DNA from: Escherichia phage vB_EcoP_G7C
Sequence record: NC_015933.1
DNA: 64,000 nt
Reading direction: 5' to 3' (one strand)
Positions 1,836 to 34,089 of this stretch are shown here, piece by piece. The notes beneath the pieces are model-generated. The model worked only from the letters and a program-made list of their open reading frames with translations. It made no database searches and was not told the origin of the DNA. Made by a program: the position numbers and the translations under genes. How positions within the stretch are numbered: the first letter of the stretch is position 1; each line of letters begins with the position of its first letter.

Positions 1836-2330
1836 ATGAAGAAACCATATGGCTATTGGCAACAATCTGCTCACAATTTAGCCAAGATTCATGACCAATC
1901 TGATGCTCAGAGTAATGGGTACATATATGTAAAACATGATGGTAAAACCGTACTTTTACATGTGTGGATTTGGGAGCAAATCAACGGTGCTATACCGGAA
2001 GGGTATGAGATAGACCATGAAAATGGTATCCGTTGGGACTGTAGGTTAAGCAACCTACGATGCGTACCAAAGCTAATTAACCTAAGAAACTCAGCAAAAC
2101 AAGCTAACAATACATCTGGTACTACTGGTGTAAGTATCATTACAGATAGGGGCAGAGAATATTGGATTGCTACATGGAGTGAGCCAGTTACAGGCAAGAA
2201 GAGAATGAAGCGCTTCAGTGTACAGAAGAATGGCTATGATACTGCTAAGCAGCTAGCCATCAACTATCGTACAGAAGTTCTAAAAGATTTAATTAAAAAT
2301 CATGACTATACAGAACGTCACGGTATGTGA
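1836..2330 (+). CDS. HNH homing endonuclease with AP2-type DNA-binding domain (paralog 1 of 4)
   Basis: EIDHENGIRWDCRLSNLRCV HNH-like core; NTSGTTGVS...YWIATW AP2-like segment; close paralog of 33592..34089. Confidence 0.7.
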   Translation: MKKPYGYWQQSAHNLAKIHDQSDAQSNGYIYVKHDGKTVLLHVWIWEQINGAIPEGYEIDHENGIRWDCRLSNLRCVPKLINLRNSAKQANNTSGTTGVSIITDRGREYWIATWSEPVTGKKRMKRFSVQKNGYDTAKQLAINYRTEVLKDLIKNHDYTERHGM

Positions 2331-2407
2331 ATAGGGCTTTTCGACGAAGAGTCACTAAAACTTAAACGTAAACAGAAGCAGATAACTTAGAGTAAGGAGT
2401 AATCAAG

Positions 2408-2593
2408 ATGCGTGTACTATGTAACCGTTATAATCCAGCAAAGTTAATCGACTTTATGGAACCCATTGGTAGTCGTATGACTTATGCTGCTCGTTGGCAG
2501 GTATCCATAGCTGATAGTAGAGAACGTACTTATGACTACTTCTTTGTAGCTAAGCCTACTCGTAAACAAATCCGTAAACTTCACAAAGGATAA
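2408..2593 (+). CDS. Hypothetical protein (61 aa)
   Basis: ORF with GGAG RBS. Confidence 0.4.
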   Translation: MRVLCNRYNPAKLIDFMEPIGSRMTYAARWQVSIADSRERTYDYFFVAKPTRKQIRKLHKG

Positions 2594-2597
2594 TGCT

Positions 2598-2750
2598 ATG
2601 AAGCTACTGGCAGAGATTCTATGTATTTTATTAATGATACTGCTGGTAGCTGCATTTCCGTGGCTATTAGCCGTAGGTATAGTTATTGGTATGTTCCTAG
2701 CCAGAGCGAGTGATGCTCGTGGTAGGGATGAGCCAGGTGGAGATGTGTAA
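2598..2750 (+). CDS. Small membrane protein (50 aa, MKLLAEILCILLMILLVAAFPWLLAVGIVIGMF...), below track cutoff
   Basis: Hydrophobic ORF with AAGGA upstream. Confidence 0.3.
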   Translation: MKLLAEILCILLMILLVAAFPWLLAVGIVIGMFLARASDARGRDEPGGDV

Positions 2751-2782
2751 ACACTGCCGGAAGGGTATGTACGGAGGAACCA

Positions 2783-2956
2783 GTGATATTCACTAACATT
2801 GAAGATGCCATTGAAGAATGTATCTTCCGTAGATATCACACTGGAGTACAGAAACGACACTATGGTGTTGTGCAACTCAATGGCTATCAAATGGCTGTAA
2901 GAATTGTACGTAACAATAAACCTTTTAACTTTATGTGGAGTACTAAACATGCGTAA
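2783..2956 (+). CDS. Small hypothetical protein (57 aa, GTG start)
   Basis: GGAGG RBS 5 nt upstream of GTG; + strand like all neighbours. Confidence 0.3.
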   Translation: MIFTNIEDAIEECIFRRYHTGVQKRHYGVVQLNGYQMAVRIVRNNKPFNFMWSTKHA

Positions 2957-3077
2957 GTCATTAATCATGGGAACCAAAGCTGACGTACAGAAGATGAAAG
3001 AACGTCTGGCTGCTAAGAAACAGGCATCTGAACCAGTACGTAAGATTGTTACCTTCAATCATCCGTGCATCAAATAG
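2949..3077 (+). CDS. Small basic protein (42 aa, MRKSLIMGTKADVQKMKERLAAKK...)
   Basis: GGAG RBS; start overlaps the previous stop; followed by terminator. Confidence 0.3.
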   Translation: MRKSLIMGTKADVQKMKERLAAKKQASEPVRKIVTFNHPCIK

Positions 3078-3085
3078 TAAGGAGT

Positions 3086-3116
3086 CCTCCAATAGGAGGC
3101 TCCTATTTTTTATTTT
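3086..3116 (+). terminator. Intrinsic terminator (CCTCC-AATA-GGAGG + T-rich tract)
   Basis: Stem-loop followed by TATTTTTTATTTTT. Confidence 0.5.
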
Positions 3117-3154
3117 TGAATAGTTAGACATGTATTTAAATAGGAGAAAGAACC

Positions 3155-3463
3155 TTGAATGAAATAGTATGCATACTTCCACACTTAGCTAAAGTAGCTG
3201 ATAGGAATATACGGATACATTTACCCTTCCCATTAAGTAATCCATTTACTCGTAATGAAAGAACCACAGTAGAGGATATAGAGGTAGCTTATGAGGCTTA
3301 CCTTCGCAATCGTCTTATTAGTGGTGACAAATTAATTACAGCAGAGATGGAAAGGATTGCTGGTTTTGTCACAGATAGTACAAAGAAACCTGTTGGTTTA
3401 ATTGGTACTGAATCTGATGTTAACGTTATTCGTAAAATATTAATGGAGGCTCTAAGCCAATGA
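3155..3463 (+). CDS. Hypothetical protein (102 aa, TTG start per track)
   Basis: GGAG 8 nt upstream of TTG. Confidence 0.4.
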   Translation: MNEIVCILPHLAKVADRNIRIHLPFPLSNPFTRNERTTVEDIEVAYEAYLRNRLISGDKLITAEMERIAGFVTDSTKKPVGLIGTESDVNVIRKILMEALSQ

Positions 3464-3681
3464 TGTACATGAGCAATTATGGTATTTGCCCAGTCTGTAA
3501 GAAAGGACGTGGAGTTGCTAATCATAAGAAGTGTAGTCGTATATTGCAGAAACAACGGAACCAGGAAGAATGGTCTAAGGTGCTGGAAAATCAGCACAAA
3601 GAAGAGAATCAACAGATGGCTGTTAAGGCATCTACTCAACGTATTCGCCGTATTAACTATATACAAGGATACCAAAAGTGA
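3460..3681 (+). CDS. Hypothetical basic protein with CxxC motif (73 aa)
   Basis: ATGA start/stop overlap with upstream gene; CPVCKK motif. Confidence 0.45.
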   Translation: MMYMSNYGICPVCKKGRGVANHKKCSRILQKQRNQEEWSKVLENQHKEENQQMAVKASTQRIRRINYIQGYQK

Positions 3682-3935
3682 TTATTACATTCCCTGTAAC
3701 TAAATCATTTAACTATATGGGACAAACTATTGAAGTCCCATTATGGGTTAAATATGTAGCCTTATTACCTCGTCCTCAGAAGAGTAAGAATGCCTCACTA
3801 ATTGGATTTAGTAGAAAGCCTAAGCTAACTGAAAACTGTATTTGGAAGTCCAGCGGCAGACAAGAAGAAATTGGTTTTTGTGACTATGTACCTCAACCGA
3901 ATACAGTATATCTAACCCTGGAGAAAGTAGAGTGA
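3678..3935 (+). CDS. Hypothetical protein (85 aa)
   Basis: Start overlaps upstream stop in a tightly packed gene run. Confidence 0.4.
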   Translation: MIITFPVTKSFNYMGQTIEVPLWVKYVALLPRPQKSKNASLIGFSRKPKLTENCIWKSSGRQEEIGFCDYVPQPNTVYLTLEKVE

Positions 3936-4862: not shown

Positions 4863-4865
4863 CTA

Positions 4866-5216: not shown

Positions 5217-5220
5217 GAAG

Positions 5221-5233
5221 GGTGCTCCGCACC
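5221..5233 (+). promoter_or_regulatory. Candidate virion-RNAP promoter hairpin (ggtGCTCCGCacc) upstream of RNAP II genes
   Basis: Same GCTCCGC core, 5-bp stem, 3-nt loop, about 30 nt upstream of the RNAP II start. Confidence 0.55.
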
Positions 5234-5264
5234 TTGTGGTAATTAACTAATTGGAGAATATGCG

Positions 5265-6083
5265 ATGTACTCATCTATCGAACATCAGAAGCAACTCGAA
5301 GTACTATTCAATAAAAATCAGCTCCTGCCAAGGATGCGAAAAGAGTTCGAGGACTCCAAAGAAATTGACTTTAAGGCATTCGCTGCCTATTTGGAAATTG
5401 ATTATAAACTGCTCATTGATGCAATGGTGCAGATTGCCCTACATAAACGTGCTGACATCCAGACTATGATTGGCTCTCTCATGAGTCACTCAGATGATGC
5501 TCAGTACATCGCTGACTGTCTGTATAAGATGGCAGAGAATGACTGCTTCAACTATGACCCTACCATCGACAAGTTCGGTGTTATCTATGAGATTAGTGAA
5601 GATGTTCAGATGGAACTGGAAGCATTCCAGTATCCATTACCTATCGTAAGTGCTCCTAATCCTGTCAGAACTAACAGGGATACTGGTTACTACCAGACTA
5701 AGGGAAGCATTATCCTCAAGAAGAACCATCATGAGATGGATGTCTGCCTTGACCATATCAACCGTATGAACAATCAACGTCTCTGTATTAACTGGGATGT
5801 TGCTAACTATGTAAAAGACTCTCGTCCTAATATGGATAAACCCAAAGAGGGTGAAACCCGTCAGGACTATGAGAAACGTGTTAAAGCCTTTGAGAAGTAC
5901 AGTCGTACCGCTAAGGAAGTAATGGAGTTAGTGACTCAGGAAGGTAATAACTTCTCACTAGCGCATAAGTACGATAAGAGAGGGAGAACCTATGCCTGTG
6001 GATACCATATTAACTATGCTGGGACGTCCTACAACAAGGCAGTGGTTGAATTTGCAGACAAAGAACTAGTAAACGAGGATTAG
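5265..6083 (+). CDS. Phage RNA polymerase II, N-terminal (small) subunit of a split T7-like RNAP
   Basis: 272 aa ORF preceding the ORF that carries the T7-RNAP catalytic motifs; size and order match the two-subunit RNAP II of N4-type phages; GGAG 8 nt upstream. Confidence 0.6.
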   Translation: MYSSIEHQKQLEVLFNKNQLLPRMRKEFEDSKEIDFKAFAAYLEIDYKLLIDAMVQIALHKRADIQTMIGSLMSHSDDAQYIADCLYKMAENDCFNYDPTIDKFGVIYEISEDVQMELEAFQYPLPIVSAPNPVRTNRDTGYYQTKGSIILKKNHHEMDVCLDHINRMNNQRLCINWDVANYVKDSRPNMDKPKEGETRQDYEKRVKAFEKYSRTAKEVMELVTQEGNNFSLAHKYDKRGRTYACGYHINYAGTSYNKAVVEFADKELVNED

Positions 6084-6084
6084 T

Positions 6085-6666
6085 ATGAAGACATGTTCAG
6101 TATGTAAGAAGAACTTGCCTCTGGACATGTTCAATAAACAGTCCACAGGTAAGCAAGGTGTAAGGGCAGACTGTAAAGACTGCCTTAAACGATTTATCCG
6201 TTCAAAACACGGAGTCATTAATCAGATGTACTCCGGTTGTATCAGTAGAACTAAGAAGAAGGGGTTTACTCCTGTATCTTTCACAAAGGAGGAACTAGAG
6301 AAATGGGTGTATTCAAGTAAAGAATTTCACGAATTATATGATGAATGGGTATCGAAAGATTACCCAACTAACCTAAAGCCGAGCTTAGATCGGTTGGATG
6401 ATTATAAAGGTTATTCACTGGACAACATTCGTATTGTTACAGCGAATACCAACGTAAAAAGGTACTACTCTGATGCAATCAATGGTATCAACACCAAATC
6501 AGCTAAGCCTGTTGAGCAGTATTCACTAGATGGTAAATACATTAAGACGTTCCATTCACTTAGTGCTGCTGCACGAAGTGTTAAGGGTATACCCTCTAAT
6601 ATTAATCAAGTAATTAACGGTACATATGCGCAAGCATATGGCTATAAGTGGAAACTAGGAGCCTAA
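6085..6666 (+). CDS. Homing-endonuclease-like protein (N-terminal Cys-rich zinc-finger-like region, degenerate HNH-like core, C-terminal NUMOD-like DNA-binding motif)
   Basis: CSVCKK...CKDC; LDRLDDYKGYSLDNIRIV aligns with the DHxDxNxxNNxxSNLRxV core of the AP2-HNH paralogs but lacks the His; C-terminal GIPSNINQVINGTYAQAYGYKWK. Confidence 0.5.
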   Translation: MKTCSVCKKNLPLDMFNKQSTGKQGVRADCKDCLKRFIRSKHGVINQMYSGCISRTKKKGFTPVSFTKEELEKWVYSSKEFHELYDEWVSKDYPTNLKPSLDRLDDYKGYSLDNIRIVTANTNVKRYYSDAINGINTKSAKPVEQYSLDGKYIKTFHSLSAAARSVKGIPSNINQVINGTYAQAYGYKWKLGA

Positions 6667-6667
6667 G

Positions 6668-7885
6668 ATGCAGATTTTCACAGCTAAAGAATATTTAAAA
6701 ATTGATATTGCCAATTCTTACGGGCTGGATAAGAAGACATGGGATGAGCGTATTAGCTGGTTCGATGAGAATGAAGCTAACCTGCTTAATCTGGTAGATG
6801 AAGCTGAAGAATCCGCACTGTTCTATGCTGGCGTAAACGCATGGAAAGACATGAAAGCCGGTAAACCTATCGGTTATGCCGTAGCTCTGGATGCTACATC
6901 ATCTGGTTTGCAGTTACTGGCTTGCCTGACTGGTGACCGTTCTGCTGCTGAACTATGTAACGTAGTTAACTACATGGGTGAGAACGGTAAGCCATTACGT
7001 CGTGATGCTTATACAGTTATCTATCACAAGATGCTGGACATCCTTGGTGAATCATCCCGTATTAAACGTAGTGATACTAAGCAGGCAGTTATGACTGCGT
7101 TCTATGGTTCAGAAGCTAAGCCTAAAGAAGTATTCGGTGAAGGTATTCGTCTCAAGACTTTTGAGAATGTAATGGAAACAGTTGCTAGTGGACCTTGGGC
7201 ACTGAACAAGTTCTTACTGCAATGTGGTAACCCGGATGCTAACCGTTACGTATGGGTACTGCCTGACAACTTCCATGCTGTCATTAAGGTCATGGTTCCA
7301 GAAGTACAGACCGTTAACTTCTTAGGTAAGCCATTCGACATCACCCGTATGGTACAGGGTACTGAAGATAAGACTCGTATGCTCTCTGCTAACATCACTC
7401 ACTCTATTGATGGGATGGTGGTACGTGAAATGCTGCGTCGTTGTAACTTCAACATGAACCAGGTGAACTATGTTAAGTCCCTCTGTGAAGGAACCAGTGA
7501 GTATATGCTGGGTACTAGCGGGAACTACGACATGGTTAGTCAACTGTGGCATAACTATGAGAAATCAGGATTCCTGTCTACCCGTATCTTTGATTATCTG
7601 GATTCTGACTCAATTAAACTGGTTGATACAGATGTAATCATGGCTATGATTAATACTATGCCTAAGAAACCATTCCCTGTAATGACTGTACATGACTGCT
7701 TCCGTTGTCATCCTAACTACGGTAATGATCTGCGTCGTCAGTACAATCAGATTCTGTCTGACATTGCTAAGAGTGATCTACTGGGCTTCATCCTGTCTCA
7801 GGTACTGGGACAAGAGTTCTCTGCTGGTAAGCTGGATGACAGCCTCTGGCAGGACATCCTTGAAACAGACTATGCGTTAAGTTAA
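6668..7885 (+). CDS. Phage RNA polymerase II, catalytic (large) subunit, T7-like single-subunit RNAP palm/fingers
   Basis: ALDATSSGLQ (motif A), RSDTKQAVMTAFYGSEAKP (motif B), VHDCFRC (motif C) align with T7 RNAP DGSCSGIQ / RSVTKRSVMTLAYGSKEFG / HDSFGT. Confidence 0.8.
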   Translation: MQIFTAKEYLKIDIANSYGLDKKTWDERISWFDENEANLLNLVDEAEESALFYAGVNAWKDMKAGKPIGYAVALDATSSGLQLLACLTGDRSAAELCNVVNYMGENGKPLRRDAYTVIYHKMLDILGESSRIKRSDTKQAVMTAFYGSEAKPKEVFGEGIRLKTFENVMETVASGPWALNKFLLQCGNPDANRYVWVLPDNFHAVIKVMVPEVQTVNFLGKPFDITRMVQGTEDKTRMLSANITHSIDGMVVREMLRRCNFNMNQVNYVKSLCEGTSEYMLGTSGNYDMVSQLWHNYEKSGFLSTRIFDYLDSDSIKLVDTDVIMAMINTMPKKPFPVMTVHDCFRCHPNYGNDLRRQYNQILSDIAKSDLLGFILSQVLGQEFSAGKLDDSLWQDILETDYALS

Positions 7886-7892
7886 TAAACTG

Positions 7893-7927: not shown

Positions 7928-7944
7928 GCTTGGAGGTAGTCAAC

Positions 7945-9860: not shown

Positions 9861-10913
9861 ATGGCGAGCATTGACTCCTTGACTGTATGTAATACACGCC
9901 AAGCCCGTAACTTTATTATCCGTGCCTTGCAAGCAGGTAACGTACCGTTCCTGACTTCATCACCAGGTATGGGTAAGTCTGCAATTATTCGTTCTATTGC
10001 AGAAGAATTTGGTATGAAGCTGATTGACCATCGTCTGTCTACTTCTGCCCCGGAAGACTTATCTGGTCTACCATTCCGTAATGGTGACCGTGCAGAGTTT
10101 ATTCCATTTGCTGACTTATTCCCTATCGAGGGTGACAAAGTACCGGATGGTTATAATGGCTGGCTCCTGTTCCTTGATGAGTTCAACTCAGCTAAGAAAG
10201 AAGTAGTGGCTGCTGCATACAAACTAATTCTCGACCGCATGACCGGACAGAAAAAACTTCACCCTAATGTGATGATTATCTGTGCCGGTAACAAAGCTAC
10301 TGACCGAGCCATAGTTAACCCACTGGGTACTGCAATGCAGTCTCGTGTTGTCCACTTCGAAATGGAACTCGACTTCGACATCTTTGTTGAAGACGTAATG
10401 ATTCCACAAGAATGGGATGAGCGTCTGGTTGCATTCTTACATGCTAACCCTGGTTATCTGCATGACTTCGACCCCGCACATAAGAATAAAACATTCTGTT
10501 GCCCACGTACCTGGGACTTTGTTAACAAAGACCTCAAGAACCGACCAGAAGGTGCTTTGCCTGATGAAGATTCTATCTACTATGCAGGCCACGTTACTGC
10601 TGGTAAAGCTACAGAGTTTGTTCAGTTCACTCAGGTATACAATCGTATGATTACGATTGAGAAGGTAGTAAAAGACCCGTTAGGCTGTGCACTACCGGAA
10701 GATAATAACCTGTGTTGGGCTACTGTTAACCATCTGGCTAACAAAACTACTGAAGATAACTTCGCTGATGTTCTTCAGTACATTGAACGCTTTAAAACGT
10801 TCACCCATAAGATTCTGTACTTCCGTACAGTAGGAAAAGCATTACCAGAAATTCAGGCTACCCCTGAATGGCGTAAGGCTGCTGCCAATATCTCTCGTTA
10901 CATTCACGGATAA
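9861..10913 (+). CDS. AAA+ ATPase, MoxR-like
   Basis: Walker A SPGMGKSA; Walker B LLFLDEFN; followed (after an HNH gene) by a VWA-type partner. Confidence 0.7.
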   Translation: MASIDSLTVCNTRQARNFIIRALQAGNVPFLTSSPGMGKSAIIRSIAEEFGMKLIDHRLSTSAPEDLSGLPFRNGDRAEFIPFADLFPIEGDKVPDGYNGWLLFLDEFNSAKKEVVAAAYKLILDRMTGQKKLHPNVMIICAGNKATDRAIVNPLGTAMQSRVVHFEMELDFDIFVEDVMIPQEWDERLVAFLHANPGYLHDFDPAHKNKTFCCPRTWDFVNKDLKNRPEGALPDEDSIYYAGHVTAGKATEFVQFTQVYNRMITIEKVVKDPLGCALPEDNNLCWATVNHLANKTTEDNFADVLQYIERFKTFTHKILYFRTVGKALPEIQATPEWRKAAANISRYIHG

Positions 10914-10916: not shown

Positions 10917-11393
10917 ATGAACTGGCATGAACTATTTGTTTATAGCAATGGTTCCCTTTACTGGAAAGTAAGTAGGGGCTGCGTAAAAGCAGGTGCCATT
11001 GCTGGTTGTTTGGATAACAGCGGGTATTTGCGTGTTAAATGTAATAGAAAAAATCATTTAGTTCACCGCATAATTTATGAAATGGAAATTGGTCCAATTC
11101 CTGATGGTATGCAGGTAGACCATATTGACCACAATAGGCTAAATAATTACCCAAGTAATTTCCGTTTAGTAACAAACATGGTTAATAGTAAAAACCAAAC
11201 CATGAGAGTAACAAATACATCAGGTGTGACAGGAGTATACTGGCACACTCGGGATAAAATTTGGACTGCCCATATAAATGACAATGGTAAACAAATTTAC
11301 TTAGGAAAATTTAACAGTAAACAAGAAGCCATTTCAGCCAGAAAGGAAGCAGAAAAATTATTGGGCTACCATATAAATCATGGGGAACCCTAA
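10917..11393 (+). CDS. HNH homing endonuclease with AP2 domain (paralog 2)
   Basis: VDHIDHNRLNNYPSNFRLV HNH core; NTSGVTGVYW...WTAHI AP2-like. Confidence 0.7.
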   Translation: MNWHELFVYSNGSLYWKVSRGCVKAGAIAGCLDNSGYLRVKCNRKNHLVHRIIYEMEIGPIPDGMQVDHIDHNRLNNYPSNFRLVTNMVNSKNQTMRVTNTSGVTGVYWHTRDKIWTAHINDNGKQIYLGKFNSKQEAISARKEAEKLLGYHINHGEP

Positions 11394-12568
11394 TGAATAG
11401 TATACCTACGCATACTCTCACTGATGAACGGTTAATGAGGGAGTACGATAGAATACAAGCGCAGGCATTTCTCGGACGTAGTGCAGCGTTTTTTGGTTCA
11501 TTGCTGTGTAGTCTTAAGTTCTCATGGAAACGTGAGGGCTGTCCCACTGCATGTACCGACGGGATAGAACTCCATTTCAACCCAGACTTCTTTATCTGGA
11601 TGTGTCCTGATGCAAGGGAAACAGTGCTAATGCACGAACTTTGGCATGTGGCATATCTGCATGGAATCCGTTGTGGAAGCCGTGATCCAGAAGTCTGGAA
11701 CCAGGCATGTGACCACTTCATTAACCTTCAGTTAGAGGAAGATGGTTACAAGTTCACTGGTATCGACAAAGGCATTTGCAAAGACCCTCAATATAAAGGA
11801 TGGGTCGAAGAAGACATCTACGATGACCTGATGAAGAACCCTCAGAAAAGGCAGAAGCCGTCGGGGGGAGCTGGAGCAGGTCTTGCTGGCGACATGAAAG
11901 CTCCCTCTTCGGGGCAGTCCCAGGGTGCTGTTGTCAACAACGTAGTACGTGCAATACAAAGCCAGAAGATGGCTGGTGGAACGATGCCCGGTAAAGGTGC
12001 TGGTCGTATGGAAGAGGTTATTACCCAATTCCTTAAACCAGTGGTTCCGTGGCAGGAAGTCCTGATGAACTTCTTTACCGACATTGATGATACGCATTAT
12101 ACGTGGGCCAGACCCAACCGTCGTTTCACTGACGTCTATCTACCTTCTCTGGAAGATGATGAAGGACGTTTACGACACTTAGCCTATTTTGAGGATGTAT
12201 CCGGTTCTATTAGTAGTGCTGACTCTCTGCGTTTTAACTCAGAGGTTGCCTACGTTAAGAGCCAGTTCAATCCTAAGAAGATGACCCTAATTACCTTCGA
12301 CGATATTATCCAAGAAGAAATAGACATCACTGAAGAAGATACTTTTGAAGAGATTAAGATTACTGGACGAGGGGGTACAAACCTTGAACCAGTGCGTGAA
12401 TGGATTATTAAGAATAAGCCAACCGCTGCAATCATATTCTCTGATATGTATGTTCGCCCTATGGAAGATTTACCATTTGATATTCCTATCATCTGGTGTG
12501 TTCTGAATAATCCTAATGCTACCGTACCTTTTGGGGAGGTAGTTCATATCCCTAAAGGAATGAAATAA
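11393..12568 (+). CDS. VWA-domain / putative metallopeptidase-domain protein, partner of the MoxR-like ATPase
   Basis: HELWHVAYLH (HExxH) in N-terminal part; size and position match VWA partners of MoxR ATPases. Confidence 0.55.
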   Translation: MNSIPTHTLTDERLMREYDRIQAQAFLGRSAAFFGSLLCSLKFSWKREGCPTACTDGIELHFNPDFFIWMCPDARETVLMHELWHVAYLHGIRCGSRDPEVWNQACDHFINLQLEEDGYKFTGIDKGICKDPQYKGWVEEDIYDDLMKNPQKRQKPSGGAGAGLAGDMKAPSSGQSQGAVVNNVVRAIQSQKMAGGTMPGKGAGRMEEVITQFLKPVVPWQEVLMNFFTDIDDTHYTWARPNRRFTDVYLPSLEDDEGRLRHLAYFEDVSGSISSADSLRFNSEVAYVKSQFNPKKMTLITFDDIIQEEIDITEEDTFEEIKITGRGGTNLEPVREWIIKNKPTAAIIFSDMYVRPMEDLPFDIPIIWCVLNNPNATVPFGEVVHIPKGMK

Positions 12569-23654: not shown

Positions 23655-26234
23655 ATGCGTTACATCACCTCTCAGGATACTGGCAAGTATCCTATTGCTA
23701 TCCTCGGTCATCAAATCCGAAGGGAGGAGATGATTAAAACCTACCTGCTGCCTTATGACCTAAGCATGGAAGATTTCATCTTCCTTGAACTTCATTCTGC
23801 CCCTGGCAAGAAGAAGACCCCTGCAAGGGAGATTAAGGAGTTCATACAGCAGGAACTACAGCAAGTACTGGATGATGCAGAGACTCAATACATTATCTGT
23901 ACCGATTCTGACTACTTCAAAATACTGACTAAAGAAGCTAAAGCAGAGGCTAACCTCGGCTATGTTTGTGATTCAGTATGGGGTAAGCAGAAGGTTATCT
24001 ATACACCTAGCTACAGACAGGTCTTTTATGACCCACCTGTAGTGAAAGCCAAGATTGCTCAGGGAATGGATGCATTACTTAACCACATTCGCGGACAGTA
24101 TGCTGAACCAGGGCAGGGAATCATTGAGTTTGAAGCCTACCCAGATACACCCGAAAAGATTAAAGCCTGGTTGGACCAGTTGCTTGAGATGAATAAGCCT
24201 CTGGCTATAGACATCGAATCATTCGGTTTAAAGCACTATAACGCAGGCATAGGAACGATTACGTTCTGTTGGAGTAAGACACAAGGCATAGCCTTTAATG
24301 TGGACTACGAGCCAATTAAGGGAGCTACTGAAGCACCTTATGGGCGTATAAACAGGAATGATGTTGTTCGTAACCTGTTACGCGAGTTCTTCATTAAGTA
24401 CACCCAACGGCAGATGTATCACAACATTAGCTATGACGTGTACATACTTATCTATCAGTTATTCATGGATAACCTGATTGATACGGAAGGCTTACTACAT
24501 GGCATGGAAATCATGCTACGTAACTGGGACTGTACTAAGTTAATCACCTACCTGGCTACTAACAGTTGTGCCGGTAATCACCTTAGTCTGAAAGACCAGG
24601 CTCAGGAGTATGCTGGTAACTATGCTCAGGATGATATTAAAGACATACGTCTTATTCCTAATGAGCAACTGTTACGCTACAACCTCATTGATGGTTTGTG
24701 TACGTGGTACACCTACGAGAAGCACTGGGATACTCTCATTGCTGATGACCAACTAGATGTTTACAACAACATCTTTAAACCAGCCTGTGAAGACATTATT
24801 CAGATGCAGTTAACCGGTATGCCCATGAATATGGAAACCGTTAACCAAGTGGCTGAAGAGATGGAAACTGACAGGAACCAGGCTTTGAAAACTATTCGTG
24901 AGTCTAAGCTCATGAAGAATTTCACCCTGATGCTTCGTCAGGAATGGGTAGACGATAAGAATGCTAAGCTTAAGAAGAAGCAAGTAACATTGGCTGATTG
25001 TGACATTGAGTTTAATCCTAACTCCGGTCCTCAATTACAGAAACTGTTATTTGATTATATTGGCTTACCGGTTCTTGGTCTTACTAAGAGCAAGCAACCT
25101 GCTACTGACGGTGACACTATTAAAGCACTGCGTACACATACGCAGAGTGAAGATGTTAAGGAACTGCTCAATGCACTTATCGACTATAAACTCGTGGATA
25201 AGATTATCACTAGTTTTATACCAGCTTTCAGGAATGCCCAACCGGGGCCGGATGGCTGGCACTATCTGTTCGGAAACCTCAATCTGGGAGGCACAGTCTC
25301 CGGTAGGCTATCGGCTTCAGAGCCAAATCTACAAACAATTCCATCCGGTTCTAAATATGCCAAGAAGATTAAGAAATGCTTCGAAGCCCCTCCTGGCTGG
25401 ATATTTTGCGGTTTGGACTTCGCCTCGCTGGAAGACAGAATATCTGCATTGACTACCAAAGACCCCCAGAAGCTGAAGGTGTATACCGATGGCTATGATG
25501 GTCATAGTCTTCGTGCGTATGCTTACTTTGGTGAGCAGATGCCAGACATAGTAGACACAGTTGAGTCAATCAATTCTATTCAGACGAAGTACAAGCACTT
25601 GCGTAGTGATTCTAAAGCCCCAACTTTCTTGCTTACCTATGGTGGCACGTACATGGGCTTGATGAAAAACTGTGGCTTCTCAGAAGAGAAAGCTAAGACA
25701 ACAGAGAAACGTTATCACGACCTCTATGTAGTTAGTGATGCGTGGGTTCAGGCTAAGCTAGATGAAGCTGCCAAAACTGGTTATGTTACTGCTGCATTTG
25801 GTTTGAGAGTGCGTACTCCTTTACTGGCTCAGGTATTACGTGGGACATGTAAGACTCCATATGAAGCAGAAGCTGAAGGTAGGACTGCTGGTAATGCCTT
25901 GGGGCAAAGCTGGTGTCTACTGAATAACCGTGCTGGTTCAGAATTTATGCGTAAAGTCAGAGCCAGTGAGTTCAGATTAGATATACGCCCTAGTATTCAC
26001 ATTCATGATGCTCAGTACTTCATGATTCGTGACAATATGGATACCTTGCAGTACACGAACAAGCACTTGGTGGAAGCCGTTAACTGGCAAGACCATCCTG
26101 ATATTGCTCATCCAGAAGTTGGTTTGGGTGGGGAACTATCCTTGTTTTACCCAACGTGGGCTAACGAGATTGAGATTCCAAATCACGCTACCCCAGAAGA
26201 AGTTCATCAAATAATTCAAAAGGCATTCGCATGA
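23655..26234 (+). CDS. Family A DNA polymerase (Pol I-like)
   Basis: GLDFASLEDRISA (motif A-like), KAPTFLLTYGG (motif B-like), HIHDAQYF (motif C-like); 859 aa. Confidence 0.85.
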   Translation: MRYITSQDTGKYPIAILGHQIRREEMIKTYLLPYDLSMEDFIFLELHSAPGKKKTPAREIKEFIQQELQQVLDDAETQYIICTDSDYFKILTKEAKAEANLGYVCDSVWGKQKVIYTPSYRQVFYDPPVVKAKIAQGMDALLNHIRGQYAEPGQGIIEFEAYPDTPEKIKAWLDQLLEMNKPLAIDIESFGLKHYNAGIGTITFCWSKTQGIAFNVDYEPIKGATEAPYGRINRNDVVRNLLREFFIKYTQRQMYHNISYDVYILIYQLFMDNLIDTEGLLHGMEIMLRNWDCTKLITYLATNSCAGNHLSLKDQAQEYAGNYAQDDIKDIRLIPNEQLLRYNLIDGLCTWYTYEKHWDTLIADDQLDVYNNIFKPACEDIIQMQLTGMPMNMETVNQVAEEMETDRNQALKTIRESKLMKNFTLMLRQEWVDDKNAKLKKKQVTLADCDIEFNPNSGPQLQKLLFDYIGLPVLGLTKSKQPATDGDTIKALRTHTQSEDVKELLNALIDYKLVDKIITSFIPAFRNAQPGPDGWHYLFGNLNLGGTVSGRLSASEPNLQTIPSGSKYAKKIKKCFEAPPGWIFCGLDFASLEDRISALTTKDPQKLKVYTDGYDGHSLRAYAYFGEQMPDIVDTVESINSIQTKYKHLRSDSKAPTFLLTYGGTYMGLMKNCGFSEEKAKTTEKRYHDLYVVSDAWVQAKLDEAAKTGYVTAAFGLRVRTPLLAQVLRGTCKTPYEAEAEGRTAGNALGQSWCLLNNRAGSEFMRKVRASEFRLDIRPSIHIHDAQYFMIRDNMDTLQYTNKHLVEAVNWQDHPDIAHPEVGLGGELSLFYPTWANEIEIPNHATPEEVHQIIQKAFA

Positions 26235-26536
26235 CTAAAAGTACTAAAGAAACCATCGTCAAAAAATATCATTGGATGGTGGCAGCACAGGTAATCTTCC
26301 AGCTCCCTAAAGCTGATGATGGTTCTCTGCTTACCATGAACACAATGCTGCTCACTACCGAACCTCATGTGACCTATAAAGATTTGGCTCGTGCCAATCA
26401 TTCCCTGAAAATTAGTCTGGACCAGCGTTTCGACACCTCAGTTGACCTGAAAGACATTGTTTATCTGTCTCTTAGCAACCTGGGTCTGATGTCTGAACCA
26501 GAGTTCCAGGCAAACATGATTCCCAAGGGGGAATAA
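26231..26536 (+). CDS. Hypothetical protein (101 aa)
   Basis: Start overlaps polymerase stop. Confidence 0.45.
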   Translation: MTKSTKETIVKKYHWMVAAQVIFQLPKADDGSLLTMNTMLLTTEPHVTYKDLARANHSLKISLDQRFDTSVDLKDIVYLSLSNLGLMSEPEFQANMIPKGE

Positions 26537-27006
26537 TGACTAAGCTCTCCGGTGGCCTTAATAACTACTATGTAGTTTCAATTAAGAATCCCCAACGGAA
26601 AGAGCAAGAGCCATATCAAGCAGAGTGTGAGGATATTATCCAAGCACTGGGCATGACCTTCGATGAAGGTTGTGCCTTTAAAGCTCTATGGCGAAATGCT
26701 GCTGCCCGTATGGGTAATGGTAAACCAGGTAATAAAGCCCTGTATGACTGTGAGAAGCTAGTTCATTACGCTAATCGTATTCTCGCTAAAGAAAGGTTAG
26801 CGGAGGAACCAGCAGTCAAAGATGTCCTTAACTCTGTGTGTAATAATTGGATTTACTCTAACGAGAAACCTCTGCTCACTAAACCATTTACGTTTATTGA
26901 GGTTATCTTCAAAGACCAGACTATCCCTATTCCAAGCACTTACCTTGCGAATAACATTGGAGCAATTCCTTGGGATAATGTACAGAAATACAGGATTACT
27001 TACTGA
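26536..27006 (+). CDS. Hypothetical protein (156 aa)
   Basis: ATGA overlap with upstream gene. Confidence 0.45.
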   Translation: MTKLSGGLNNYYVVSIKNPQRKEQEPYQAECEDIIQALGMTFDEGCAFKALWRNAAARMGNGKPGNKALYDCEKLVHYANRILAKERLAEEPAVKDVLNSVCNNWIYSNEKPLLTKPFTFIEVIFKDQTIPIPSTYLANNIGAIPWDNVQKYRITY

Positions 27007-27077
27007 TGAAGATAACCAACAACCATGATGTCTCACTAGCTCTGGCTGTATGGCTATTGCATGATGAGTAACTAATT

Positions 27078-27575
27078 ATGAAACAGAGGATTGCCCATGA
27101 CAGGCTTTTACAGCTTGTTAGTTATGACCCTATTTCCGGAATTTTTACTCGTAGGAATACCGGAAAGGTATCCGGTTACCTAATGAAGAGTGGTTACGTT
27201 CAACTCCGTGTGGATAGTGTGTTGTACTATGGGCATATCCTTGCATGGTTCTATGTGCATGGCGTATGGCCTACGGATAGGATTGACCATAAGGACAATA
27301 TACGCCATCACAACTGGATAGATAACCTCAGAGAAGCGACCCACAAGCAGAATAACCAGAGTGCTGTTTTATCTAAAACAAACACATCTGGGTTTAAGGG
27401 TGTCTCCTTTTCAAAGAATATGGGTAAGTACAGAGCAACTATTTGGGTTAATAGCAAACCAATTACATTAGGTTACACAGATAACCCAATAGAGGCTGCT
27501 GTTCTCTACGATGAAGCTGCTGTAACTCATTATGGTGAGTTTGCCAAAACCAACAAACAATTAGGACTGTTATGA
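27078..27575 (+). CDS. HNH homing endonuclease with AP2 domain (paralog 3)
   Basis: RIDHKDNIRHHNWIDNLREATHKQN HNH core; NTSGFKGVSF...YRATIW AP2-like. Confidence 0.7.
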   Translation: MKQRIAHDRLLQLVSYDPISGIFTRRNTGKVSGYLMKSGYVQLRVDSVLYYGHILAWFYVHGVWPTDRIDHKDNIRHHNWIDNLREATHKQNNQSAVLSKTNTSGFKGVSFSKNMGKYRATIWVNSKPITLGYTDNPIEAAVLYDEAAVTHYGEFAKTNKQLGLL

Positions 27576-28552
27576 AACTTACTAACAATCATGATGTTAG
27601 TCTTGCACTAGCTGTTTGGCTTGTTACAGATGATTATGATTACGTAGACAATCCTAAGTACCTGTCTGCTACCACATTGCTTAAGCCCATTAAGCAAATC
27701 GTCATGAAGCATCGTGTAGATTTTAGTGACCAGTCAATTGATGTTATGGATTTCGTATCCACATCAATGGGTACTGGCTTACATGATTCTATCGAGAAAG
27801 CCTGGAAGCTAGGCCATAAGACTGCATTGAAGAAGCTGGGTTATCCTCAGCGAGTAATTGATGCAGTAGTCATTAACCCAACCAAAGAAGACTTTGCTGC
27901 TAACCCTGACCTTATCCCAATCTACATTGAACAACGTGGAACCAAGCAGGTTAAGGGATGGACTATTGGTGGTAAATTCGACATCGTAACGGAAGGTCTG
28001 TTGCAAGACTTCAAGTCTACCTCAACCTATTCCTGGGTTGCTGGTTCCCGTGATGATGAACACAAGATGCAAGGCAGCTTGTACCGTTGGATTCACAACG
28101 ACATCATTACTGAGGATGTAATTCGTATTAACTACATCTTCACCGACTTCATGAAACACATGGCTAACAGCAATCCGAACTATCCTGCTAATCGTATTAT
28201 GCATAAGGATATTCCGTTACTGTCTGTCGAGAAGACTGAACGTTGGGTGGAAGAGAAGATTCACTTAATCGAAAAGTACTGGGATGCACCTGAAGAGGAA
28301 ATCCCCGAATGTACTGACGAGGAGTTGTGGCGAACAGAGCCACAGTTCAAATACTTCTCTGATGCTTCTAAGGTAGATGTACCTGGAGCCAGAAGTACCA
28401 AAAACTTTGGCGATATGGCATCTGCCCGTATCTTCATGGCTGAAAAAGGTGGCAAGGGTGCTATCAAGGTTGTGGAGGGGCAGGTTAAACGCTGTTTATA
28501 TTGCCCTGTCGCATCCATTTGCAAACAAAGAGAGAGATATTTTCCATCATGA
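27572..28552 (+). CDS. Putative PD-(D/E)XK-family exonuclease with C-terminal Cys cluster
   Basis: GGKFDIV...LQDFK resembles the D...(D/E)xK core; C-terminal CLYCPVASIC; position matches the 5-prime-3-prime exonuclease slot of N4-type replication modules. Confidence 0.45.
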   Translation: MKLTNNHDVSLALAVWLVTDDYDYVDNPKYLSATTLLKPIKQIVMKHRVDFSDQSIDVMDFVSTSMGTGLHDSIEKAWKLGHKTALKKLGYPQRVIDAVVINPTKEDFAANPDLIPIYIEQRGTKQVKGWTIGGKFDIVTEGLLQDFKSTSTYSWVAGSRDDEHKMQGSLYRWIHNDIITEDVIRINYIFTDFMKHMANSNPNYPANRIMHKDIPLLSVEKTERWVEEKIHLIEKYWDAPEEEIPECTDEELWRTEPQFKYFSDASKVDVPGARSTKNFGDMASARIFMAEKGGKGAIKVVEGQVKRCLYCPVASICKQRERYFPS

Positions 28553-30702: not shown

Positions 30703-30758
30703 GCAAACAGGAGTCTTTCTTTGGTTTGAAGGACTCCTAAACTAAACGAGGAAAAATA

Positions 30759-31511
30759 ATGTCCGAAGAAATCTCCAATGATATGAACACTCAGCTAATC
30801 CTGATTGCAGGATTCTCAGCGAGTGGTAAATCAGCATCACTGCGTAATATCCGGAACCAGGAACGCTGGCTGTATTTGAATACAGAAGCGGGTAAGCGTC
30901 TGCCTTTCCGTAATAAGTTCAACACCTATAACATCGAAGACCCATATCAGATTTGGGAAGCATTTGATGTTGCATCTCCGGGTGGTGAAATGGCAGACGA
31001 TGTTGATGGTATCATTATCGACTCTGCTACCTTCATGATGGACATGTTGGAATCTCAGTATGTATTGCCATCTGCTAATACCCAGAAAGCCTGGGGAGAC
31101 TTTGCACAGTTCTTTAAAATACTGCTGCAACAGAAAGTCGTTAAGTTTGGTAAGCCAGTAATCATTACTGCTCATGCCAAAGATGAACTTGACGAAGCTG
31201 CTGGTGTGATGAAAACATTCATCCCGGTTAAGGGTTCACTGAAGAACAATGGCCTTGAGGCTTACTTCTCTACAGTGGTTTATGCAGAACGTGTAGACAT
31301 TAAAGAGCTGGAGAAGTATGGCAACAAGATGCTTGATATTACGGAAGAAGAACGTGACTTAGGCTATAAGCACGTATTCCAGACTCGTCCAACCAAGAAG
31401 TCTGTTGGTAAACGACTTCGCTCACCAATGGGTATGTTTGATAAGTCGCAGACTTATATTGATAATGATGCCCAAAAACTCTTAGACCATCTGGCTGAAT
31501 ACTACGCTTAA
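30759..31511 (+). CDS. P-loop NTPase (RecA-like / AAA_24-type)
   Basis: Walker A GFSASGKS near N-terminus; about 250 aa. Confidence 0.55.
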   Translation: MSEEISNDMNTQLILIAGFSASGKSASLRNIRNQERWLYLNTEAGKRLPFRNKFNTYNIEDPYQIWEAFDVASPGGEMADDVDGIIIDSATFMMDMLESQYVLPSANTQKAWGDFAQFFKILLQQKVVKFGKPVIITAHAKDELDEAAGVMKTFIPVKGSLKNNGLEAYFSTVVYAERVDIKELEKYGNKMLDITEEERDLGYKHVFQTRPTKKSVGKRLRSPMGMFDKSQTYIDNDAQKLLDHLAEYYA

Positions 31512-31551
31512 GCGTTTGCCTGGTTGTTAATCACTTATTAGGAAAAATATT

Positions 31552-32355
31552 ATGTCACTGTTCAGTAACTTGAAAGAAAAGACCAAAAACGTTGAAGCTG
31601 TAAAAGACTCCCTTGGTGGTGGTGGCTTCGGTGCAAAAGAATCCGATATCTACACCGGTACTGTAAAAGTAGCTTATGTAGGTAAAGCTGACTCTGGTGC
31701 AGACTGGATGCAGTTAATCATTGAAAACCTGAAAGGTTCTGACGGCAATGATGCTGGTGAGTTCCGTGCTCAGGTGTACTTTACTTCTGGTAATGCTAAA
31801 GGCAATAAGCCAACTTACGAGAAGAATGGTAAAGAGTACTTCCTGCCTGGTTACACTGTCATTAATGACATGATGCTGATGGCTACTGGTTGTGAACTGC
31901 CAGATGCAGACTTCGAAGAGAAGATTGTTAAAGTCTATGACTTCGATCTGAAAGCTGAAACCAATAAATCTGTCATGGTTCCAGTTGACCTGGTTGGTCA
32001 GACTGTTACCTTCGCTCTGGAAAAGGTTCTGGAAGCTAAGCAGGTTAAAGGTGACAACGGTTACGTTGACTCCGGTGAAACCCGTGAAGTAAACGAGATT
32101 CAGAAAGTGTTTCACCCGGAACTGCTGGTCACAGTCGTCGAGGCTCAGGAAGCAGAGAAGGCTGAGAAAGAACTGACCCCAGAACTGGCTGTATTCTACG
32201 GAGCATGGCTGGAAAAGAACAAAGGTAAAACCCGTGATAAGACCAAGGGTTCTGCTGGTGGTAATGGTAAAGGTGGCTTGCCTCCTAAACCAGGTGCAGG
32301 TGCTGGCACGGGTACTACTCCAGCTGGTGGTAAATCTCTGTTCGGTAAGCGTTAA
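31552..32355 (+). CDS. Single-stranded DNA-binding protein-like (Gly-rich C-terminal tail)
   Basis: Size and position as in N4-type SSB; C-terminal GSAGGNGKGGLPPKPGAGAGTGTTPAGG tail. Confidence 0.5.
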   Translation: MSLFSNLKEKTKNVEAVKDSLGGGGFGAKESDIYTGTVKVAYVGKADSGADWMQLIIENLKGSDGNDAGEFRAQVYFTSGNAKGNKPTYEKNGKEYFLPGYTVINDMMLMATGCELPDADFEEKIVKVYDFDLKAETNKSVMVPVDLVGQTVTFALEKVLEAKQVKGDNGYVDSGETREVNEIQKVFHPELLVTVVEAQEAEKAEKELTPELAVFYGAWLEKNKGKTRDKTKGSAGGNGKGGLPPKPGAGAGTGTTPAGGKSLFGKR

Positions 32356-32909
32356 TGAAAATCCCAATTGTCGGTGCAGACATTAGCCTCCGCAATTGGG
32401 GATTAGCTCGTGGGATGCTGGACATTGAGTCCGGCGTCTTCGAGCAGGTCGAACTTAAACTGGTTCAAACTGAAGTTGACCACAACAAACAAGTTCGAAC
32501 CAACTCCAAAGATATACAAGCTGCCCATGATTTGTTTCTTGGTTGTGAGGAATGGTTACGGTCTGCTAAAGCAGTATTCGTAGAAGTACCAGTAGGCTCT
32601 CAGTCTGCTAATGGAATGAAGTCCTATGGTGTATGCGTAGGATTAATTGGTGCATTCCGTGCATTGGGTTGTCCAATCTTTGAAGTATCCCCAATTGAAA
32701 ACAAACTTGCACTGGTCGGCGATAAAACTGCATCAAAAGACACGATGATTCGTGCTGCTCATGCCATCTATCCTGAAGCCAACTGGCTCACGGATAGTAA
32801 AGGTAAACTTCTGAATAAGAATGAGCACTTAGCTGATGCAATCGGTGCAATCCACGCTGGTGTAAATCTCCCAGCTTTCCAGAATCTCATTAAATTAATA
32901 AAGGCATAA
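32355..32909 (+). CDS. RuvC-like Holliday junction resolvase
   Basis: N-terminal KIPIVGADISLRNWG (RNase H-like first strand with catalytic Asp) and C-terminal HLADAIGAIHAG. Confidence 0.5.
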   Translation: MKIPIVGADISLRNWGLARGMLDIESGVFEQVELKLVQTEVDHNKQVRTNSKDIQAAHDLFLGCEEWLRSAKAVFVEVPVGSQSANGMKSYGVCVGLIGAFRALGCPIFEVSPIENKLALVGDKTASKDTMIRAAHAIYPEANWLTDSKGKLLNKNEHLADAIGAIHAGVNLPAFQNLIKLIKA

Positions 32910-32910
32910 T

Positions 32911-33360
32911 ATGCAAATCGTTCTGAACCAGTCTGAAGTAGAAGCTGCTATTGAAGCTTATGTAAATGAACAGGTTAATCTTGCCGGGGACATTAATATC
33001 CTGGTGAATGCAGATGGTACTGCCACCATTGGCATCAATGAAGAGGCCGGTCATAGTGATGACACTCCCCCCGTGGTAGAGAAGAGGACTCGTCGTTCTC
33101 GTAAGAATCCACAAGAAGCCAAACACCGTCCGGTAGAACCAGAACCAGTTGTTGGGGATGAAACTGAAGAAGAGGTAAAGGAAGAAGAAACCCAGACCTC
33201 TACTGGTGGTGTGAACGAGAGTTCTACGCCGGAACCTGAAGAAGCAGTAGCTGAACCAGAAGCACAAGAAGAAGTTGTGCAGGAGGAAGTTAAGGCAGAA
33301 GAACCAGCAGAGAAACCTGCTGCGAAGCCTTCACTGTTCGCTGGCCTAAAACGTAGTTAA
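32911..33360 (+). CDS. Highly acidic Glu/Pro-rich protein (149 aa)
   Basis: C-terminal two-thirds dominated by E, P, T, A; probably disordered. Confidence 0.5.
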   Translation: MQIVLNQSEVEAAIEAYVNEQVNLAGDINILVNADGTATIGINEEAGHSDDTPPVVEKRTRRSRKNPQEAKHRPVEPEPVVGDETEEEVKEEETQTSTGGVNESSTPEPEEAVAEPEAQEEVVQEEVKAEEPAEKPAAKPSLFAGLKRS

Positions 33361-33591
33361 TCTGGTAGGTGGCTCAGAAGCTGCTGCTAGGTGTGGTAGT
33401 GTTTATAGTACTGATGCTACTACTGGTCAGGATTATAGACGTGTCGGCTCCATACATAGCTTTTATCATCACTGTCATTATCCTGTGGAAATGCAGTGGT
33501 AAACACGGTGGTGACAAGCCGCCAGAATAACAACAACCGAGCCAGAGAGTTTTAATACTCTCCGAAGCTCTCTGGTTCATCTGAGGTATTT

Positions 33592-34089
33592 ATGAGCAAG
33601 CCATTAGGATACTGGAATAAACCTGCCCATGAACTCGCTGTAGTACATTCTCCCGATGATGCCAATGCAAAGGATGGATACATCAGTATTAAACGTCATG
33701 GGGTGAGGGTATTTCTGCACAACTGGATTTGGGAATACTATAATGGACCAATCCCGGATGGGTATGAAGTTGACCACATCAATGGAATCCCAACTGATTG
33801 TCGACTTATTAATATGAGACTGGTGTCCCATATGATTAACTGTCGCAATCGTCGCAAAAGAATTGACAATACATCCGGCGCTACCGGTGTGTATAGACAA
33901 TGGAAGAAGACTAATGAATATTGGACTGCTGCTTGGAATGACCCGCATACAGGTAAGCTACGAACTAAAAGCTTCAACATTGGTGTTCTTGGGGATAGCG
34001 AAGCCAAAGATGCTGCTATAGCATACCGGGCTACTATAGAAGCAGACCTGGTAAAGAATCACAACTACACCTTACGCCATGGAAGATAA
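33592..34089 (+). CDS. HNH homing endonuclease with AP2 domain (paralog 4)
   Basis: Collinear with 1836..2330 over full length (GYEVDHINGIPTDCRLINMRLV; NTSGATGVY...YWTAAW). Confidence 0.7.
   Translation: MSKPLGYWNKPAHELAVVHSPDDANAKDGYISIKRHGVRVFLHNWIWEYYNGPIPDGYEVDHINGIPTDCRLINMRLVSHMINCRNRRKRIDNTSGATGVYRQWKKTNEYWTAAWNDPHTGKLRTKSFNIGVLGDSEAKDAAIAYRATIEADLVKNHNYTLRHGR

Follow-up and report, generated by a model that had tools for sequence, protein, structure and literature searches.

Four HNH-AP2 genes in an Escherichia phage genome are probably free-standing homing endonuclease genes of the genus Gamaleyavirus

Four HNH-AP2 genes and their setting

The stretch of DNA analysed here, 64,000 nucleotides of Escherichia phage vB_EcoP_G7C (NC_015933.1; "the window"), contains four related genes, named H1 to H4 (Table 1). 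Each encodes a small protein with an N-terminal HNH nuclease module and a C-terminal AP2 domain. A first-pass annotation made from the DNA sequence alone had proposed these four open reading frames (ORFs), and all four are confirmed, with their positions and + orientation. Based on the domains of the proteins, their distribution among related phages and the anatomy of their insertion sites, the four genes are likely to be free-standing homing endonuclease genes in a Gamaleyavirus genome (estimated probability about 80%).

The window belongs to the genus Gamaleyavirus (Schitoviridae; N4/G7C-like, with genomes of 68-76 kb). Over long stretches it shares 88-96% identity with Escherichia and Shigella phages of this group, and its genes follow the order of phage N4, as judged from the annotation of Bp4 and Mimir124. 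Mobility was assessed by comparing each gene and 1 kb of its flanks with 50,697 phage records. The close comparison set consists of the homologous ~36-kb stretch from 12 relatives and the window. IMG/VR was considered as a source of additional empty and filled alleles, but it contributed only 10 loci (at least four of them apparently duplicating GenBank genomes) and the annotated phage collection was used instead.

Table 1. Features of the window discussed in the text
Feature	Position	Strand	Description
Early genes			First block of the N4-like gene order
22-nt motif, upstream copy	1805..1826	+	CTTTTAGACGAAGAGAGACTAA; resembles the copy before the NAN33P5 ortholog
H1	1836..2330	+	164 aa (amino acids), HNH_3 + AP2
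22-nt motif, downstream copy	2337..2358	+	CTTTTCGACGAAGAGTCACTAA; resembles the single copy of H1-less genomes, e.g. Bas96
RNA polymerase subunit genes (two)	5265..6083 and 6668..7885		
Fifth nuclease gene (other family)	6085..6666	+	Cys-rich N-terminus, EndoVII/HNH-like core (phrog_1035), NUMOD1
ATPase (N4 gp24 homolog)	9861..10913		
H2	10917..11393	+	158 aa, HNH_3 + AP2
DUF2201/VWA protein (N4 gp25 homolog)	11393..12568	+	
Recoded 5' end of gp25 homolog	11393..11500	+	Tied to the presence of H2
rIIA/B, helicase, DNA polymerase	23655..26234 (DNA polymerase)		Follow the gp25 homolog in the N4-like order
Exonuclease stub	27006..27071	+	MKITNNHDVSLALAVWLLHDE; first 65 nt of the gene (27006..27070), then a new TAA stop; 21 codons
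H3	27078..27575	+	165 aa, HNH_3 + AP2
Recoded exonuclease codons 1-22	27572..27636	+	Cassette-borne; ATGA overlap with the H3 stop
Exonuclease (N4 gp42 homolog)	27572..28552		Followed by primase, Sak4, SSB and RuvC genes
Complete hairpin	33539..33578	+	Directly upstream of H4; private stem variant, found only in the window and ZQ2
H4	33592..34089	+	165 aa, HNH_3 + AP2
Partial insertion-site duplicate	34090..34132	+	Loop remnant, right hairpin arm (resident type), ribosome-binding site, small-ORF ATG (34125)
Giant virion RNA polymerase		opposite	

Domains and predicted structure of the proteins

All four proteins score above the gathering threshold for Pfam HNH_3 (PF13392; E-values: 6e-19 to 3e-9), with 67.8, 64.1, 36.9 and 62.2 bits across the four and a cut-off of 24.8. 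They also match Pfam AP2 (PF00847; E-values: 6e-9 to 5e-4). For this domain only H1 (36.6 bits) exceeds the gathering score of 33.3; H2 (30.0 bits), H4 (28.7 bits) and H3 (20.8 bits) fall below it, with E-values of 6.5e-7 to 4.8e-4. Pfam detects no domain besides HNH_3 and AP2 in these proteins, and all four are assigned to phrog_99 ('HNH endonuclease'). H1 and H4 are 52% identical and collinear from end to end (E-value: 1e-58), as had been noted for the first and last genes. The remaining pairs are 30-37% identical (E-values: 1e-20 to 2e-5), and every pair is significant by BLASTP.

The common architecture described in the first-pass annotation is therefore borne out by the HNH_3 and AP2 matches and by an invariant D-H...N...N in all four proteins, with the catalytic residues present. 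The motifs quoted for it are narrower than the family: DHxDxNxxNNxxSNLRxV fits H2 alone to the letter, and YWxAxW fits only H1 and H4. The invariant positions (in H1 numbering) are D60, H61, N73, R75, N82 and N92-T-S-G95..G98-V99, the last of which (NTSG..GV) marks the start of the AP2 domain. Among the 29 Gamaleyavirus family members collected, the H, N and N of the HNH core are conserved without exception, and the Asp preceding the HNH His is present in 25 (replaced by N in three and by E in one).

The best solved-structure match for the nuclease half is I-HmuI of Bacillus phage SPO1 (PDB 1U3E), whose N-terminal region and HNH_3 core align with the four proteins. A four-protein profile matches it with an E-value of 2e-8 (aligning VDHkdg..nlR.vt..iN), and the same profile matches AP2 proteins of apicomplexan and plant origin (AP2IX-6, E-value: 5e-4; WRI1, E-value: 0.02). 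The I-HmuI counterparts of the catalytic and metal-binding residues are D74/H75/N87/N96 (Asp-His, structural Asn and metal Asn). I-HmuI nicks one strand. It differs from the four proteins in being intron-encoded rather than free-standing, in sharing only ~15-25% identity with them and in its C-terminal DNA-binding part, which is helical (helix-turn-helix) and not AP2.

An AlphaFold model (predicted local distance difference test score, pLDDT, 78.5) has two domains joined by a disordered linker. In the nuclease half, a candidate beta-beta-alpha-metal fold, the DH pair lies at the end of a strand (58-61) that is followed by a second strand (74-77) and a helix (88-91). The AP2 half consists of three strands (98-104, 107-115 and 122-128) and a helix (134-155), forming a three-stranded sheet on a helix. 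The best Foldseek matches are I-HmuI and apicomplexan AP2 domains, all of them weak (E-values of 6e-3 or higher): 1U3E is matched with an E-value of 1.3e-2 and a probability of 0.85, and the AP2 domains of PfSIP2 with probabilities of 0.99-1.0 and E-values of ~2e-2. The I-HmuI-like HNH_3 module probably nicks or cuts DNA, and the AP2 domain would supply it with DNA site recognition.

Distribution among related phages

Each of the four genes is a presence/absence polymorphism at a fixed site, and the flanks of these sites are 88-96% identical among relatives. Mapping against related genomes thus places presence and absence at the exact insertion site for all four genes. Site 1 is filled in one other genome only, the unannotated NAN33P5, with an ortholog of 68.7% aa identity; no record in the phage collection contains H1 at the megablast level. 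Site 2 is filled in ~10 of 57 records (five with the same gene, five with a diverged gene of the same size) and empty in ~40, the span being 2005 nt when empty and 2477 nt when filled (a difference of 472 nt). Orthologs of H2 are found in UE-M6, M3, S5a and S5b of the UE series (94% aa identity to UE-M6), in Mimir124 (77%) and in Bp4 (56%), where the ORF is cut down to 110 aa. Site 3 contains the gene in 11 of 77 records, and H3 orthologs of 97-99% aa identity occur in Mimir124, Bp4 and ECBP1. For site 4, ZQ2 is the only other filled genome (H4, 98% aa identity). The near identity of H3 and H4 to copies in phages isolated elsewhere suggests recent spread.

A neighbour-joining tree of 29 family proteins from 13 genomes groups the genes of sites 1, 2, 3 and 4 by insertion site and not by genome. 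In a deeper clade H1 and H4 fall together with a gene located between the RNA polymerase genes of UE-M6. This grouping suggests four lineages that were acquired independently, each specific to its site, rather than copies duplicated within one genome. Duplication within the genome was considered as the origin of the four copies and rejected: each groups with the same-site genes of other phages, and only H1 and H4 share a deeper clade. The term 'paralogous', applied earlier to the four genes, should not be taken to mean copies made within this genome.

GenBank already carries the label 'HNH homing endonuclease' for the orthologs of H2, H3 and H4 (same-site examples are XLZ23687.1 and XLZ23664.1 of Mimir124, ECBP1_0048, ZQ2 gp46 and UE-M6_058), and the literature searched contains no experimental characterisation of these annotated Gamaleyavirus proteins. 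H1 differs from them in that its sole ortholog (69%) lies in an unannotated genome.

The window holds no fifth copy of the family (tblastn), and Pfam scans of the small late-region ORFs detect no nuclease. A nuclease gene of another family, missed in the first-pass inventory, is located between the two RNA polymerase subunit genes (Table 1); its Bas96 ortholog has 93% aa identity. The same gap contains HNH-AP2 genes in Mimir124 and UE-M6 and just a 162-nt ORF in ECBP1 and SP5M. As its contents differ among relatives, different endonuclease families appear to take turns at this position. Searches with H1-H4 and the 6085..6666 protein (tblastn) locate at least 14 distinct insertion positions across the 12 relatives and the window, with 0-5 nuclease genes per ~36-kb stretch. 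The five genes of the window equal the highest count among the compared stretches (that of U1G). Given this range and number of sites, the load, described earlier as high, is not out of line for the genus.

This distribution bears on two other explanations. The first is that the four proteins are domesticated nucleases or DNA-binding proteins that serve the phage in exclusion, in attack on host DNA or, via AP2, in the control of transcription or anti-defence, and are not selfish. The H genes form tightly coupled parts of early and replication operons, the cutting of a rival's essential gene would also profit the carrier, and the AP2 domains of phage CasPR anti-CRISPR repressors silence transcription (bioRxiv 10.64898/2026.02.23.707548). 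Nevertheless, this explanation is unlikely. Among phages of ~90% identity, so patchy a presence (0-5 genes per stretch, at differing sites) speaks against a function that the phage needs, the proteins have an intact set of HNH catalytic residues and only HNH_3 and AP2 as Pfam domains, and both the site-specific lineages and the recoding next to the targets described below are hallmarks of homing. A CasPR-type repressor was likewise rejected as the principal interpretation, given the intact catalytic HNH core and the lack of any reported CapR-type domain.

The second is that the genes are decaying relics: once-mobile endonuclease genes, some or all of which no longer cut and which persist by hitch-hiking. 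The homing cycle predicts degeneration after fixation, the site-2 genes diverge widely (94%, 77% and 56% aa identity, with the shortened ORF in Bp4) and H1 has no close relative. On the other hand, the four ORFs of the window are full length with all catalytic and AP2 signature residues intact, and the 97-99% identity of H3 and H4 to copies elsewhere suggests that they spread recently. Decay of some or all copies is given slightly less credence than domestication, itself improbable, and mobile homing endonuclease genes remain the preferred explanation.

Site 3: a cassette within the exonuclease gene

The insertion at site 3 is a cassette of 566 bp (27071..27636) with H3 at its core, placed past nt 65 of the exonuclease ORF. 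The family is indeed free-standing, as first proposed, but H3 does not lie between genes: its cassette is inside a coding sequence. The 65 nt left upstream as a stub are identical to the empty SP5M allele, and H3 starts 6 nt past the TAA stop that now closes them. At its downstream end the cassette carries exonuclease codons 1-22 in recoded form; across the aligned repeat this copy is ~72% identical in nt to the stub, and it keeps 17 of the 21 stub aa. This copy joins the resident sequence at TGATTACGTAGAC, exactly at nt 66, and restores a full-length exonuclease ORF. The same succession of stub, H3 and recoded end is found in Mimir124, Bp4 and ECBP1.

The recoded end also occurs without H3, in NAN33P5 and in the K57alpha1.2 record (96% identity). 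The NAN33P5 allele (32926..32990 in window orientation) is stub-like at nt 1-11 and recoded-like at nt 12-65, and it is the only exonuclease start there. This chimera could have arisen when recombination between the two repeats removed H3, or it could be an ancestral allele with resistance; the H3-less recoded allele is presumably resistant. In the other of these two genomes the recoded end is located at 65065..65213 (OY979416.1), in a record whose annotation does not fit these genes (for example 'portal protein' over the exonuclease) and whose feature table is seemingly shifted.

An intron would give a different account of this site. In this case H3 would lie in a self-splicing intron, with the 65-nt stub as exon 1 and exon 2 starting at 27637, and splicing would recreate the exonuclease ORF. 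Positions 27006..27070 joined to 27637 onward do form an in-frame exonuclease identical to the empty alleles, and the Sak4, ATPase and polymerase genes are interrupted in related phages. However, the room left for a ribozyme around the H3 ORF is just 7 nt on the upstream side and ~61 nt on the downstream side, and no Rfam family, including group I and group II introns, matches 26800-27900 at an E-value of 1 or lower. The downstream 65 nt retain 17 of the 21 stub aa despite ~28% nucleotide change and their ATG overlaps the H3 stop, which indicates selection as a coding 5' end; in NAN33P5, moreover, the recoded end serves as the sole exonuclease start. An intron at site 3 is thus highly improbable. 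Group I and II introns were also sought elsewhere and rejected, with no Rfam match at the gathering score in the whole window, and the ORFs flanking the H genes are complete.

The H3 element may be a self-contained homing cassette that replaces a gene end, combining the endonuclease gene with recoded, cut-resistant first 22 codons of the essential exonuclease; the chances for and against this proposal are judged about equal. The 21-codon stub may act as a translational launch pad for the expression of H3. A mobile element in the Allomyces mitochondrial atp6 gene reportedly consists of an endonuclease ORF and a foreign copy of the gene end (Paquin et al. 1994). In that case a replacement terminal segment is supplied and the resident segment is left behind as a stub, an apparent parallel to the H3 cassette; the difference is that it replaces the 3' end of a mitochondrial gene and the H3 cassette the 5' end of a phage exonuclease gene.

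The region next to site 3 is unusually variable. Positions 26800..27000, within the 3' half of the ORF at 26536..27006 (N4 gp41 homolog), show 0-64% identity or are deleted in 11 of the 12 relatives, SP5M being the only match, and this tract varies even among H3-filled genomes. It ends exactly at the start of the exonuclease stub. As it is hypervariable even among filled relatives, the gp41 3' half marks a real exchange boundary.

Site 2: a recoded gp25 start

H2 starts 3 nt past the stop codon of the ATPase gene (10913), and its own stop overlaps the start of the gp25 homolog (TAATG). The upstream flank is unaffected and shares 92-100% identity with that of every relative. Within the first ~100 nt of the gp25 homolog, by contrast, identity is 62-72% to most empty alleles and 82-90% to filled alleles. 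In the interval 11450-11499 the empty alleles of Bas96 and U1G are already back at 88-90%, and past 11500 identity is again ~90-96%. Within nt 1-55 there are fixed differences between four filled and nine empty genomes that are mostly synonymous or conservative, such as CGT/CGC to AGG in one Arg codon. Over the first 36 codons, filled and empty alleles differ by 23-37 nt versus 4-7 aa. The recoded tract is confined to H2-carrying genomes, the pattern expected if the enzyme recognises the gp25 5' end, which is therefore the probable target region of H2, with changes that would confer immunity. Site 2 has no flanking repeats beyond a common ATGAA(C/T) start.

Site 4: a split hairpin

In empty genomes, site 4 consists of a hairpin with a stem of 15 bp and a 10-nt loop, AAUACUCUCC, that is invariant; the ribosome-binding site and ATG of a small ORF come next. 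This ORF begins MNKFTIHWLNGK. The hairpin stem covaries strongly: there are six distinct alleles, seven of the 15 pairs have changed in a compensatory way and pairing is kept in 100% of cells, values that none of the shuffled or slid controls come near, and the folding z-score is about -3.8. G-U pairs are possible on the + strand only, which suggests that the hairpin is an RNA element.

H4 is inserted in the hairpin loop and itself begins with the initiation region of the small ORF (ATGAGC versus ATGAAC). The junction is a 42-nt partial duplication that splits the hairpin: a complete copy precedes the gene, and the half hairpin that follows it no longer folds (z-score -0.8).

Site 1: a duplicated motif in a mosaic region

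H1 is the first gene past the strong terminator of the gp2 homolog (stem 1742-1761). The 22-nt motif on its two sides (Table 1) contains GACGAAGAG, which is present as one copy in relatives and on both sides of H1 in the window. The string GACGAAGRG occurs exactly twice in the window, in these two copies. The early region is mosaic at this site, and flank changes linked to the presence of the gene are weak. A loose G(A/G)AGAGT likeness between the H1 and H4 sites, seen by eye, was considered as a common target and is not relied on.

Proposed model for homing

The four genes show what is expected of free-standing homing genes, namely polymorphism at a fixed site (all four sites) and closest relatives at the same site in other phages. 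Gene-linked changes adjacent to the target are clear at sites 2 and 3, site 4 is duplicated and disrupted, and site 1 shows weak changes. The earlier description of these genes as mobile endonucleases is upheld by this polymorphism, by the intact catalytic residues and by the divergence of flanks linked to the endonuclease genes. The recombination hotspots predicted with it are supported locally, by the recoded gp25 5' end, the hypervariable gp41 3' half and the mosaic early region at site 1.

The proposed and best-supported model is classic intronless homing. When a carrier and a relative without the gene infect the same cell, the enzyme would nick or cut the empty allele beside its own insertion point. 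The target would be the motif past the gp2 terminator for H1, the first ~50 nt of the gp25 homolog for H2, the surroundings of nt 65 of the exonuclease gene for H3 and the loop of the conserved hairpin for H4. Recombinational repair from the carrier genome would copy the gene and its nearby flank. Carriers would be immune because the insertion splits the target and/or because the target is recoded. Each cassette would be spliced into a chain of translationally coupled genes, occupying the region where the downstream gene is initiated and supplying a substitute, with the coupling of that gene preserved. At sites 3 and 4 only one side is duplicated, which suggests that the cassette first arrived through homologous exchange at one end and an illegitimate join to the break at the other, in which case the odd junction would mark the position of cleavage.

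Several points weigh against this interpretation. The target sites are predicted from junction positions and linked substitutions only, and presence/absence with recoded flanks could also result from ordinary mosaic recombination. The AP2 scores of H2, H3 and H4 are below the Pfam gathering score, and no Foldseek match reaches an E-value of 1e-3. The evidence for mobility is thinnest for H1, with its one distant ortholog (69% aa identity), and some copies, H1 especially, may be inactive relics.

Comparison with known systems

Free-standing genes of a similar kind are familiar from phage T4, where the seg and mob genes lie between or in essential genes and spread by cleaving alleles without them (intronless homing, e.g. 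SegF), with co-conversion of flanks and exclusion of markers near the site. The T4 Seg proteins are GIY-YIG enzymes, and the Mob proteins combine HNH with zinc-finger-type DNA binding, in place of the AP2 domain of H1-H4. The HNH-AP2 proteins form a homing endonuclease family that is itself established (Magnani 2004, as cited in PMC10448857), and genes of this type occupy phage exchange boundaries next to essential genes (Barth et al. 2023, PMC10448857). The 'IPA-HNH' genes of Vibrio phage ICP1 (PMC10448857) share the N-terminal HNH and C-terminal AP2 arrangement with H1-H4 and are likewise free-standing beside essential genes; their domains are too divergent for Pfam HNH_3, whereas those of H1-H4 are canonical. 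In G7C-like phages, 22 indel loci have been described, many of them related to homing endonucleases (bioRxiv 10.1101/542787). The gene type is thus ordinary and known in this phage group, and the additions made here are the H1 allele and the explicit anatomy of the junctions only.

Other features of the window

The gp25 homolog downstream of H2 matches DUF2201 metallopeptidase/VWA-like proteins (E-values: 1e-54 and 3e-34). In several database records this 391-aa protein is labelled 'HNH endonuclease' (in Mimir124 via phrog_1314). The label was rejected in favour of DUF2201 metallopeptidase/VWA and is probably a misannotation, through which endonucleases are overcounted in the genus.

The gene for the Sak4-like annealing protein is intact in the window (30759..31511) and interrupted in Bas96 and SP5M, at the equivalent of window position ~31090. 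In Bas96 it is annotated as a joined coding sequence (5381..6929) with an embedded 'restriction endonuclease', and the interrupted equivalent in SP5M is at 31018..32566. Interrupted ATPase, DNA polymerase and RNA polymerase genes are found among U1G, NAN33P5, pSb-1, SP5M and ZQ2.

No tRNA genes are detected anywhere in the window (ARAGORN, Rfam); relatives have one to three (Ile, Cys, Thr, Val) after the replication genes, in the region equivalent to window positions 34100..36200. Three hairpins (503..515, 1228..1240 and 5221..5233), read on the template strand, consist of 5-bp stems that enclose a GGA loop (AACGC-GGA-GCGTT, GACGC-GGA-GCGTC and GGTGC-GGA-GCACC). They presumably resemble the hairpin promoters of the N4 virion RNA polymerase.

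Implications

The current understanding of homing endonucleases is unchanged by these genes, and the main value of the analysis is for annotation and for reading the mosaic structure of this phage group. The four genes and the fifth nuclease gene explain several of the insertions and divergent tracts that break collinearity with sister phages, and their insertion scars are unusually easy to read. The junctions give concrete target-site predictions for uncharacterised HNH-AP2 enzymes, namely the gp25 start, nt ~65 of the exonuclease gene and the loop AAUACUCUCC, and such enzymes could serve as sequence-specific nickases.

If the proposal for the H3 cassette is true, the element breaks the resident exonuclease gene at nt 65 and restores its function with a 5' end of its own. 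Its left junction would then be the ancestral break and would locate the cleavage site with a precision of a few bases. The same principle would apply to H2 and H4, which would seize the initiation region of the downstream gene and supply it anew. The susceptible empty allele, the filled allele with its stub and the empty recoded allele, which coexist in nature, would together represent a full cycle of invasion, immunity and loss within one genus. The Gamaleyavirus coliphages, available in BASEL-type collections, could be a tractable natural system for homing, immunity alleles and loss.

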